IMG/VR virus record: IMGVR_UViG_3300043788_000063
Strand: one strand, 5' to 3'
Length of the DNA stretch: 37,152 nt
From: a virus
Both the position numbers and the translations under genes were made by a program. Of this stretch, positions 6,737 through 8,455 are shown piece by piece. Positions within the stretch are counted from its first letter, which is position 1. Each line of letters opens with the position of its first letter. The notes below the pieces were generated by a model, which ran no database searches, was not told the origin of the DNA, and saw nothing but the letters and a program-made list of their open reading frames with translations.

Positions 6737-7558
6737 ATGGCGAGAACTCAGGAAGACATCCAAGAACTGATCCGGCGCACGCCGTTCATGTGGCCCGACA
6801 ACGTCATTCATGCGTTCCAATCCGGCTCCGCTATGCACGGAGCGACAGGGAACAAGCCGAGTGACCTTGACATCGCCGGGGTGTATATCCAGCCCCCGGA
6901 GATGATCCTCGGCATCCCACAGATGCGCATAGACGAGAACGGCGAGAAGCGCCAGTTTGACCCCGACGTGCAAACGTGGAAGACGGCGGGAGACCACGCT
7001 CGTAGCGGCGAGGGCGACATTGACCTCAGCCTGTACTCCCTGCGCAAGTGGGCGAACATGGCGGCGACCGGGAACACGACTGCTTTGGAGTTCCTGTTCG
7101 TGCGTGGCGCTGACCCCACGTACATCTGGCTTGAACACATCGTTGGTAATTACACAGACTTCATCTCAAAGAAGGCGGGGCACCACTTCATCGCCTTCGC
7201 TAAGGCAATGCTCCTGCGCCTGAACGGCGGGGCGACGGGGAAGCACGGGCAGCGCCCGGAACTTGAGGCGGAGTTCGGCTATGACGTTAAGGGTGCGATG
7301 CACATGCTGCGTGTCCTCGGCGAAGGCATTGAGCTTATGAAGACGGGCAGGATCACCCTGCCACGTCCAGAGGTGCCGTTCCTGAAGGACGTACGCAACG
7401 GCAGGTACAAGCGGGAAGAGATCAACACGATGGCTGACGACCTTTTCGCACTCCTTGAAAAGTGTGTGCAGGAGTCTGCCCTGCCGGACGAGCTTGACCG
7501 CGCCAAGATCAGCAGGATCATCACGGAAGCCCAGTTGGTGTTCTGGGGATTCCGCTGA
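6737..7558 (+). CDS. Pol-beta-superfamily nucleotidyltransferase (KNTase-like two-domain, 273 aa)
   Basis: SGSAMHGATGNKPSDLDIAGVY matches the hG[GS]-x9-13-[DE]h[DE]h NTase signature. A C-terminal helical region follows. Confidence 0.6.
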   Translation: MARTQEDIQELIRRTPFMWPDNVIHAFQSGSAMHGATGNKPSDLDIAGVYIQPPEMILGIPQMRIDENGEKRQFDPDVQTWKTAGDHARSGEGDIDLSLYSLRKWANMAATGNTTALEFLFVRGADPTYIWLEHIVGNYTDFISKKAGHHFIAFAKAMLLRLNGGATGKHGQRPELEAEFGYDVKGAMHMLRVLGEGIELMKTGRITLPRPEVPFLKDVRNGRYKREEINTMADDLFALLEKCVQESALPDELDRAKISRIITEAQLVFWGFR

Positions 7559-8193
7559 TGGGTTGGGTTGACAGAAAATGGTTTCCGAGTTGGCCCGGAG
7601 ATTACTGTTCCGGCTTCTACCAAGCACCAGAAGGTGCGGAACCAATATGGGAACTCAAAGACCCGGACTTCCACGGCACCCGTGACCACAGCCCGAAGTG
7701 GGTGATGGTCAACGGACGGGAAATCCCAGACCGCTTGATACGAGAGACAAGCGGCGGCGCTGATTGTGCGATTGAACGCCACGGCAAGGAAGTACCGCAT
7801 AGGTACACTTCTTATGCGTACTTCTGCCGTACCCACATCGTGTTTCTGTACGATGACGCCGCCGTCTTGCGGCACTTCAGAGGCAACAAGAGCCTCTTCG
7901 GGCAGCTTGTTAAAAAAGGCATCGTGGAGCCGTTGCCGGAACCCCCAAAGAAAGAGCCGTTGACGGGTTCCAGCGAGCGGGTGCGAGCCGTCAGAATTGA
8001 GATACCCGAGTCGCTCACAGCCGAACTGCGGGCGTTCCTTGAACCAATAGTCGCGGCGAACGAGAAGTTCGTGGCGCTGTGGAAGCAGGGCAAGACCGGG
8101 CCGCTCATCGGCGTAGCCATGAAGGCGGCTGGCAAGTATGAGGGGGCGCACATTCAGCAAGTTCTGAAGGAGATCGTCGGTGAACCCCTGTGA
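7558..8193 (+). CDS. Protein with a C-terminal GatB/YqeY domain (211 aa)
   Basis: C-terminus IVAANEKFVALWKQGKTGPLIGVAMKAAGKYEGAHIQQVLKEIVG matches the GatB tail [29 protein letters not shown]...QQVNELLKKKL. The ATG overlaps the NTase stop (TGATG). Confidence 0.6.
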   Translation: MGWVDRKWFPSWPGDYCSGFYQAPEGAEPIWELKDPDFHGTRDHSPKWVMVNGREIPDRLIRETSGGADCAIERHGKEVPHRYTSYAYFCRTHIVFLYDDAAVLRHFRGNKSLFGQLVKKGIVEPLPEPPKKEPLTGSSERVRAVRIEIPESLTAELRAFLEPIVAANEKFVALWKQGKTGPLIGVAMKAAGKYEGAHIQQVLKEIVGEPL

Positions 8194-8455
8194 GCTTTGC
8201 GACCGGACAGCCCTCCCGCTGACGAAGCACCACCTCATCCCGAAGGCACGCCACAACAAGCGAGTGAAACGTGACTTTGGTGCGGACAGGAACAAGGTCG
8301 CCATGATGTGTCGGCCTTGCCAAGATGCAATCCACGGGTTCTTCACGGAAAAGCAACTTGAGCGTGAGTATTACACCATTGACCTCTTGAAGAAAAACGA
8401 GCAAGTGATAAACTGGATCGCATGGGTGCAGAAGAGACCAACATGGGGACTGTGA
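8180..8455 (+). CDS. Small HNH endonuclease-like protein (91 aa)
   Basis: CELCD...KHHLIPK...N...CRPCQDAIH fits the HNH CxxC/HH/N/CxxCH pattern. RBS AGGAG is 7 nt upstream of the GTG start. Confidence 0.55.
   Translation: MNPCELCDRTALPLTKHHLIPKARHNKRVKRDFGADRNKVAMMCRPCQDAIHGFFTEKQLEREYYTIDLLKKNEQVINWIAWVQKRPTWGL

Follow-up and report, generated by a model that had tools for sequence, protein, structure and literature searches.

What do three overlapping genes of an uncultivated virus do together, if they act together at all? They lie at positions 6,737 to 8,455 of a 37,152-nucleotide stretch of IMG/VR virus record IMGVR_UViG_3300043788_000063, which we analysed as a whole and refer to as the window (coordinates are collected in Table 1). 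A sequence-only reading had taken them for a nucleotidyltransferase, a protein with a GatB/YqeY domain and an HNH protein, together a candidate tRNA-modifying or tRNA-repair system, and the three genes are indeed present on the plus strand with overlaps at both junctions. We find that the first encodes a nucleotidyltransferase of the RlaP family, and that the second encodes a previously undescribed small protein in which a variable N-terminal domain is joined to a probable tRNA-binding tail of the GatB/GatE type; RlaP-based RNA repair itself is already known. The reading we favour, tentatively and at slightly less than an even chance, is that this middle protein is an accessory tRNA-docking subunit which directs RlaP to damaged tRNAs as a form of phage counter-defence. 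The case is drawn from one clade of uncultivated phages and from inference by homology.

Pfam assigns the nucleotidyltransferase to PF10127, RlaP ("RNA repair pathway DNA polymerase beta family"), with 73.2 bits (E = 3.5e-20, cut-off 23) and to no other family; the protein also matches phrog_388 in PHROGs (E = 1.3e-45), and PF10127 is carried by all 120 listed RlaP homologs. The Pol-beta signature GS-x11-DxD noted by the sequence-only reading is present as G30-S31-x11-D43-x-D45 and, together with D96, is invariant in an alignment of 33 sequences (44-100% identity), and the helical C-terminal domain noted alongside it is predicted in an AF2 model (pLDDT 90.6; beta-strands at residues 23-101, helices at 102-269). 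This modelled domain architecture agrees with that described for the PfRlaP crystal structure. With known RlaPs the window enzyme has in common its Pfam family, the catalytic G-S...D-x-D...D set and the combination of nucleotidyltransferase and helical domains, and also its presence in jumbo phages, already described as common. It is probably a nucleotidyltransferase that acts on RNA 3' ends, and its family is linked with tRNA and RNA repair.

A KNTase/LinB-like architecture had also been proposed for this protein. Foldseek does return a weak fold resemblance, the nearest solved folds being an uncharacterised nucleotidyltransferase, Hailong HalB and ANT(4')/KNTase (E about 1e-3, TM 0.28-0.38, identity 10-15%; for ANT(4')/KNTase, E about 1e-3, TM about 0.38 and 12-13% identity), but family kinship finds no support in the RlaP-only Pfam result or in the RlaP profile, which matches no PDB chain, KNTase and LinB included, even at E <= 1; a PDB search with the RlaP sequence by itself was no more productive. 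The likeness is that of a generic Pol-beta plus helical-domain fold, not of family membership, and the enzyme groups with RlaP in Pfam rather than with aminoglycoside or lincosamide resistance enzymes. Kinship with MenT and AbiEii likewise finds no support, neither Pfam nor PADLOC giving a match (a PADLOC scan of all three module proteins returned none). Both are Pol-beta superfamily enzymes that add nucleotides to tRNA, as RlaP is, but they belong to the DUF1814 family and are toxins of toxin-antitoxin systems, whereas the window gene lies in a phage repair-type context.

The biochemistry of RlaP is very recent. Two Pseudomonas RlaPs add one or two nucleoside monophosphates to the 3'-OH of RNA, not DNA, with little preference among nucleoside triphosphates (NTPs), act preferentially on the 5' half, rather than the 3' half, of a tRNA mimic cleaved in the anticodon loop, and can restore aminoacylation of a tRNA that is one nucleotide short before ligation; the authors left open how so weakly specific an enzyme selects the correct RNA and the correct nucleotide to add (PMC12776372, 2025 preprint). 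RlaP is the most prevalent nucleotidyltransferase of jumbo phages, where it has been tied to RNA repair (jumbo-phage survey); T4 NrdC.11 is a member of the family, whose name derives from genomic association with RNA ligase genes. A dedicated partner with a GatB/GatE tail, if true, would be a concrete answer to the question of RlaP targeting in one lineage.

The middle protein, on four independent lines of homology evidence, ends in a genuine GatB/GatE/YqeY tail. Its own match to GatB_Yqey (PF02637) is sub-threshold in Pfam (17.7 bits against a cut-off of 27, residues 154-206 aligning with profile positions 91-147 of 148), and 19 of the 20 members of its family match the same domain independently (best E = 9e-7), several of them with precomputed PF02637 hits. 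A profile of the tail (C-terminal 64 columns) searched against PDB gives as its sole meaningful sequence matches the extreme C-termini of GatE (2d6f_C, residues 562-616 of 619, E = 6.4e-4) and GatB (3h0l_B, 419-476 of 478, E = 2.5e-3; 2df4_B, E = 0.031), and an exhaustive hidden Markov model (HMM) search of 1.84 billion representatives recovers GatB/GatE tails (library-wide E = 2e-4 to 1e-3). In the structural model the N-domain (residues 1-120) is beta-rich with two helices, and a disordered linker (130-146) leads from it to four helices at the C-terminus (151-207), the predicted tail fold being the antiparallel helix bundle of the YqeY C-terminal domain and the GatB tail. The resemblance to GatB/YqeY first read over 75 residues thus holds as homology, but extends over about 55-60 residues, and profile searches, in which it might have failed to score, recover GatB and GatE tails.

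What such a tail does is known from several systems, and we compared the middle protein with the GatB/GatE tail, YqeY (PF02637 / PF09424), the D. radiodurans GlnRS extension and the yeast GlnRS N-domain. The GatB tail, a helix bundle that spans residues 412-475 in S. aureus, is essential for tRNA binding and is placed at the tRNA D-loop with a Lys-rich K-x-G-K-x-K motif near the variable loop; within GatCAB it holds the tRNA elbow during acceptor-end processing, and the homologous D. radiodurans GlnRS extension enables productive tRNA binding. GatB, GatE and YqeY tails share with the middle protein the sequence and fold of the terminal helix bundle and the K-x-G-K and G..M-K..G-K elements, which in the family alignment are the invariant or nearly invariant W175-K176-x-G178-K179 and G185...M188...G192-K193 and which align with GatB elements implicated in tRNA binding. 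The phage tail is gapless as in GatE, yet retains the first half of GatB's Lys-rich motif. It differs from GatB and GatE in covering only the last ~57 of the 148 profile positions, with no helical subdomain and no catalytic cradle, and in being fused to unrelated Cys/His N-domains. In the GatB, GatE, YqeY and GlnRS proteins the tail is an appended tRNA-binding module; we propose the same role here, homology and the conserved residues suggesting that the middle protein may bind tRNA at the D-loop or elbow.

The N-terminal half, by contrast, is a swappable cassette. It occurs in three forms, while the C-terminal ~65 residues are about 60-87% identical throughout the family: type A, with about 130 residues (the window and P0001-12); type C, shortened and retaining the finger-like segment alone (A versus C, hhalign probability 95%, E = 2e-8); and type B, unrelated and Cys-rich (A versus B, hhalign probability 0.3%). 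Two related loci, among those we designate by L numbers, carry the other types in nearly identical surroundings, with RlaP and the downstream HlpB-like gene both 96% identical to those of the window in L007 (type B) and 92% and 93% identical, respectively, in L008 (type C). DNA identity between the window and these loci is 83-97% up to the RlaP stop, drops to background (about 0.1-0.47) from about 7577 to 7996, and is restored from about 7997, the tail domain's first codons. Between two type A alleles, dS in the middle gene is about 1.2-1.3 against about 0.5-0.6 in the flanks, and this roughly twofold excess suggests that alleles were exchanged, not just that the gene evolves fast.

The segment common to types A and C contains C90-x2-[H/C]93-x12-H106, the spacing of U1/matrin-type C2H2 fingers, and profile positions 86-143 match a plant protein with six zf-met/zf-C2H2_jaz/zf-U1 fingers (summed E = 1e-10). 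The signal is weak, in that single fingers score 11-20 bits and the fourth (last) His is missing, and a Pfam search that included zf-met (PF12874) gave no match for the segment, so that the finger likeness is probably a resemblance only. Two large repeat proteins that matched the N-domain (P0040 and P0042) were judged to be compositional or repeat artefacts.

The tail-protein family is small, and the contigs on which it was found all belong to a single uncultivated, jumbo-phage-like clade. About 20 members are present in 5.8 billion clusters, all on metagenomic contigs (447 kb and 121 kb for the two largest), and the 16 matches at E <= 0.001 in 1.84e9 representatives comprise family members, GatB/GatE tails and a few repeat proteins. 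Five further loci, along with a false positive from a photolyase, came from a metagenome scan. Neither the module (near-DNA) nor the middle protein, searched against 50,697 phage records, found a match, a relaxed search of the same records with the C-domain gave one gatB-like match, an IMG/VR scan for tail-family relatives gave none, and a genuine GatB tail used as the query against phage records returned apparently ordinary gatB genes or host DNA rather than partners of RlaP. Whether the gene pair occurs in other phages, as the sequence-only reading had asked, thus has a divided answer: it is present at nine loci of the clade, but in none of the 50,697 phage records or IMG/VR. In all nine loci with enough upstream sequence (the window, L003, L004/5, L006, L007, L008, L020, L022 and L023) RlaP lies upstream of the tail-domain gene, and in five of them, covering all three N-domain types, the tail gene overlaps or abuts the RlaP stop.

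It is worth recording a trap for pattern-based searches: an ELWKQGKTG-like motif of photolyases (L025, 2625-3926) mimics the tail's LWKQGKTG, and this mimicry accounts for the weak FAD_binding_7/photolyase matches of the tail.

At the RlaP/middle-gene junction, TGATG (7556-7560), stop and start overlap by one base, with GGGGA 8 nt upstream; the HlpB-like gene begins with GTG at 8180, 14 nt inside the middle gene, with GAAGGAG 6 nt upstream. Against the closest relative, L003, dN/dS is 0.06 for RlaP, 0.13 and 0.06 for the two halves of the middle gene and 0.04 for the HlpB-like gene, and this purifying selection marks all three as real, constrained genes. The terminator previously noticed after the major vault protein (MVP)-like gene is located by a terminator scan, and its hairpin is maintained via compensating changes in L003, L007 and L008. 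The promoter-like element shows near invariance at four orthologous loci, where the -10-like TAGAATAGAC is invariant, but it scores under the promoter scan's threshold, and a motif search of the window found no recurrence elsewhere in it. Mean column identity of the whole 255-nt spacer between the MVP-like gene and RlaP is 88% across three related contigs.

Gene order in the clade is constant from the MVP-like gene through RlaP to the HlpB-like gene, down to 56% RlaP identity. The MVP-like gene stands directly before RlaP in every related locus that extends upstream (L003, L004, L006, L007, L014, L016 and L018), and among RlaP's neighbours the HlpB-like gene is the most constant. The slot that separates these two genes holds a type A protein in the window, L003, L004 and L006 (in L006 with three extra small open reading frames (ORFs)), a type B protein in L007 and a type C protein in L008, and seems to attract small zinc-binding proteins of different origins. 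In L017 an 83-aa Cys-rich ORF (5831-6082; …CRCG…CAYCGC…) overlaps the RlaP stop in this slot.

The third protein matches the NCBIfam HlpB model NF058586 over nearly its full length (E = 1.9e-16) with 60.3 bits against a cut-off of 130, a score well under the equivalog cut-off that makes it an HlpB homolog and not an ortholog or equivalog. Its own PF01844 match is weak (15.5 bits against 21.4, E = 0.02), PF01844 is matched by all 21 members of its family (best 6e-6), and an HNH profile searched against PDB found nothing. Invariant across the 21 sequences are C4-x2-C7, H17-H18, R24-H25-N26, C44-x2-C47 and H52; at position 48 the window and its nearest relatives have Q, and members further away have H. 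The protein is strongly basic (pI 9.5). HlpB and the phage protein agree in size (about 90-100 aa), Zn-binding CxxC pairs and HH motif, and differ in that the phage protein is phage-encoded, consistently adjoins RlaP and has C-x2-C-Q in place of C-x2-C-H. As summarised in PMC3765158, B. subtilis HlpB/YisB, a stand-alone HNH-like protein of 100 aa, binds double- and single-stranded DNA with no detectable cleavage, and its deletion is lethal unless addAB is also deleted. A bacterial HlpB-like homolog neighbours a UvrA-like gene and has no RlaP close by, and another phage-like contig carries an HlpB-like gene of 60% identity at a distance of 1.2 kb from a divergent RlaP of 373 aa. These relatives would point to DNA rather than RNA, and the view of the HNH protein as a component of an RNA module finds no support, its family being described as DNA-binding and AddAB-linked. 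By analogy with B. subtilis the protein could be DNA-end related; that it could trim RNA ends to 3'-OH is pure speculation.

On the favoured reading, the locus is an RNA-repair (counter-defence) module built around phage RlaP. The enzyme would restore nucleotides lost to nucleases such as RloC, ahead of ligation, and the translationally coupled 211-aa protein would be its accessory substrate-recognition subunit: the C-terminal helix bundle, homologous to the D-loop/elbow-docking GatB/GatE tail, would hold the tRNA, while the flexible ~20-residue linker and the Cys/His N-domain would contact the lesion, RlaP or a host factor. In this way an RNA-end extender of poor specificity would be targeted to tRNAs. 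Complete replacement of the N-domain leaves the tail in place, with flanking RlaP and HNH genes 92-96% identical, and such cassette exchange between near-identical phages would suit adaptation to a variable partner. From one N-domain type to another RlaP hardly changes, so the conserved tail or linker is the likelier RlaP contact, if there is one, and the variable N-domain would face something that itself varies, be it lesion type, tRNA species or host protein. The middle protein would cooperate with RlaP, physically or functionally, and the direction would be repair rather than attack.

The tRNA genes of the window bear on this purpose. A tRNA array about 3.5 kb downstream of the module comprises Arg x5, Lys x4, Asn x3, His, Gln and Trp, and is dominated by isoacceptors (Lys, Arg, Asn, His and Gln) that are typical anticodon-nuclease targets. 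PrrC cleaves tRNA-Lys, and phage tRNAs have been discussed as counter-defence. Colicin D targets Arg tRNA, and colicin E5 targets His and Asn tRNA. All 15 genes encode CCA, so de novo CCA synthesis is not needed for maturation of these tRNAs; of the earlier suggestion of addition to, or repair of, tRNA 3' ends, repair is in keeping with the ties of the RlaP family, but de novo CCA addition to phage tRNAs finds no support. The proposed purpose, to keep tRNAs functional despite host cleavage, is the same as that of T4 Pnkp/Rnl1 repair and of tRNA-based evasion of anticodon nucleases, and the array fits it. The means differ: T4 Pnkp/Rnl1 heals and seals ends, whereas the window module, in which we identified neither a kinase-phosphatase nor a ligase, would restore nucleotides and target the substrate.

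Several observations weigh against the favoured reading. Some concern the tail, which is the tail subdomain of a YqeY-like domain only, the helical subdomain being missing, and whose tRNA binding is extrapolated from GatB, GatE and GlnRS; its net charge (-1 to +3) is near-neutral and nearer to that of GatE than of GatB tails, although charge does not discriminate between the readings. Others concern the linkage. The co-occurrence of RlaP and the tail gene comes from a single syntenic clade and is not phylogenetically independent, the tail gene lies 200-740 nt from RlaP in four of the nine loci (L006, L020, L022 and L023), and among the 120 best RlaP homologs there is no RlaP-PF02637 fusion. 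The middle gene is also dispensable, in that related phages keep RlaP and the HNH gene without it: the slot is empty in L014/15 and L018/19, where RlaP is followed directly by the HlpB-like HNH gene, and in L016/17 it holds an unrelated 83-aa Cys-rich ORF. The HlpB-like gene is in turn absent from L004, and these exceptions set limits to the view of the three genes as a fixed system. Distant RlaP phages (45-47% identity, L026 and L027; mycobacteriophages) have no such partners. Finally, no RNA ligase, RtcB or kinase-phosphatase (Pnkp) was found among the window ORFs scanned or, bar a HAD_PNKP fragment in L018/19, in the called genes of related loci, and with no RNA ligase in the window or within +/-8 kb in relatives, the genomic association that gave RlaP its name is absent here.

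The main rival, which we regard as possible though doubtful, is that the three genes stand side by side in a conserved early-gene block but work independently. RlaP would then act alone on RNA ends, the GatB-tail protein would be a free-standing YqeY-like tRNA-binding factor for the phage tRNAs, for example helping or modulating the handling of Asn/Gln tRNA by host GatCAB, the HlpB-like protein would act on DNA ends with AddAB/RecBCD, and the slot would be a hotspot for small accessory genes. The range of slot contents, from any of the three N-domain types through an unrelated Cys-rich ORF and extra small ORFs to nothing, is what such a hotspot would look like, and the raised dS of the middle gene can be read as independent allele exchange. 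The DNA-binding, AddAB-linked relatives of HlpB, the bacterial homolog beside a UvrA-like gene and the Ku gene encoded in the window all favour separate roles, three tRNA-Asn and one tRNA-Gln would be natural clients of GatB tails, and earlier work mentions YqeY-motif proteins beside phage tRNA genes in passing (e.g. pf16 gp65). Mere neighbourhood sits poorly, however, with a tail domain that always adjoins RlaP and is found nowhere else in very large databases, that is retained through N-domain swaps at the same junction, and whose gene shows start-stop overlap with RlaP in five loci of all three types; and in a protein with neither GatB cradle nor helical domains, amidotransferase chemistry is impossible.

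An offensive, host-takeover role is very improbable in our estimation. The middle protein would here bring RlaP to intact host tRNAs, where nucleotides added beyond CCA would block aminoacylation in a MenT-like manner, and it is true that RlaP labels full-length tRNAs in total E. coli RNA with little NTP specificity and that the GatCAB tail grips the tRNA elbow during processing of the acceptor end. The 15 tRNAs of the phage itself, however, share the encoded CCA and would face the same exposure, RlaP has a preference for the broken end in the anticodon loop over the 3' half, bacterial RlaP genes are located in repair operons, and there is neither similarity to MenT/AbiEii nor a PADLOC match. 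That the nucleotidyltransferase is an antibiotic-modifying enzyme (KNTase/ANT(4')/LinB-like) with unrelated neighbours is scarcely credible: ANT(4')/KNTase is among its nearest Foldseek folds, but the uncharacterised nucleotidyltransferase and Hailong HalB are equally close, the family assignment is to RlaP only, and the gene lies in a phage context with homologs in 638 phage records, mostly of actinophages.

Returning to the reading of the middle protein as a tRNA-docking subunit, a bolder form of it, which we consider unlikely, would make the protein the representative of a new class of modular adaptors, acting in trans, that bring substrates to RNA-repair nucleotidyltransferases and that each combine a constant tRNA-elbow clamp with interchangeable Zn-finger cassettes. 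The choice of tRNA lesion, tRNA species or host nuclease may then lie with the cassettes, lineages may swap them in an arms race with tRNA-targeting defence systems, and the MVP-like and HlpB-like proteins may share in the same ribonucleoprotein-handling apparatus.

Known RlaPs differ from the window's in their setting, here one of GatB-tail and HlpB-like proteins with an MVP-like gene in front. We found no published mention of a pairing of RlaP with a GatB tail, and GatB-tail, HlpB-like and MVP-like partners are not mentioned in the RlaP preprint (PMC12776372) or the jumbo-phage review. If the docking role is true, this would be the first case found of an aminoacyl-tRNA-amidotransferase tail recruited into RNA repair or counter-defence. 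Replacement of the cassette between phages with 92-96% identical flanking genes marks a locus under unusual evolutionary pressure, which makes it a useful pointer to host tRNA-targeting defences. Should the genes be mere neighbours, there would still be a clean reannotation of the three as RlaP, a GatB-tail protein and an HlpB-like protein.

Table 1. Features of the module and of the surrounding window, with the basis of each assignment.
Feature	Position	Strand	Basis
MVP-like gene, 820 aa	4019..6481	+	MVP_shoulder 3e-25, Vault_3 5e-10
Intrinsic terminator after MVP-like gene, 13-bp stem and T-run	6499..6531	+	terminator scan
Promoter-like element TTGTTT-17 nt-TAGAAT (weak -35, good -10)	6657..6685	+	sequence reading
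RlaP-family Pol-beta nucleotidyltransferase, 273 aa, C-terminal helical domain	6737..7558	+	ORF call, Pfam, PHROGs, AF2 model
RlaP-coupled two-domain middle protein, 211 aa: variable Cys/His N-domain, disordered linker, probable GatB/GatE-type tail	7558..8193	+	ORF call
Replaceable cassette of middle gene (N-domain and linker, aa 1-146)	7558..7996	+	DNA identity profile, hhalign
Finger-like segment of middle protein (aa 87-122)	7816..7923	+	profile similarity to multi-finger plant protein
Probable GatB/GatE/YqeY-type tail domain, aa 148-211, four helices	7999..8190	+	profile homology
HlpB/YisB-like stand-alone HNH-like protein, 91 aa, pI 9.5	8180..8455	+	ORF call, NCBIfam NF058586, PF01844
Two small ORFs extending the overlapping gene chain past the HlpB-like gene	8422-8658, 8655-8846	+	
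402-aa protein after the small ORFs, function unassigned	8846-10054		phrog_10079, 6e-115
Array of 15 tRNA genes, all with encoded CCA	11915..15655	+	ARAGORN, Rfam, 3' ends read
Truncated HisRS/HisZ-like ORF, 177 aa	12112-12645	+	TIGR00442 hisS, E 3.6e-42
HNH homing-type endonuclease gene inside tRNA array	14158-14703		HNH_5 3e-14, canonical
SAM-I/IV riboswitch aptamer match	16191-16306	-	Rfam, 43.4 bits, just above gathering score 41.1
Amino-acid permease	17460-18761	+	AA_permease_2, 2.5e-40
Two DNA methyltransferases	18806-20335, 20620-21576	+, -	
M24 (methionine-aminopeptidase-type) peptidase	23959-24687	+	2.3e-35
Ku homolog	35239-36204	+	2.7e-27

Around the module, the MVP-like protein has no PHROG or PADLOC match, and a literature search for a link between vaults, phages and RNA repair returned nothing relevant. 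Downstream, one of the two small ORFs that prolong the gene chain is Cys-rich (…NCECGKPAVRAGKCEEH…); Pfam matches neither of these ORFs nor the 402-aa protein that follows. Within the tRNA array, the HisRS/HisZ-like ORF lies between tRNA-Trp and tRNA-His and its match covers about residues 29-144 of 406 only; the ORF is conserved in relatives, with tRNA-synt_His matches in L003, L004 and L007.

The HAD_PNKP fragment mentioned above is a short ORF with PF25109, the phosphatase domain of polynucleotide kinase-phosphatase, which lies upstream of the MVP-like gene (L018, 1308-1541; L019, 1419-1541) and is apparently fragmented; it occurs in the clade's most distant members and has no counterpart in the window. 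Relatives of the module also lie on very large contigs, namely L016 (Ga0374055_0000025, 894,233 bp) and L003 (Ga0683288_0000021, 447,784 bp). To our knowledge, the 894-kb contig, if one phage genome, would exceed the largest known phage genomes; it could be a chimeric assembly or an integrated element. In the window itself, the SAM-I/IV aptamer match, which overlaps the start of a 91-aa ORF on the minus strand (15928-16203), is unusual for a phage-like genome, and the permease, M24 peptidase, Ku homolog and two methyltransferases are unusual cargo in a phage-like region.

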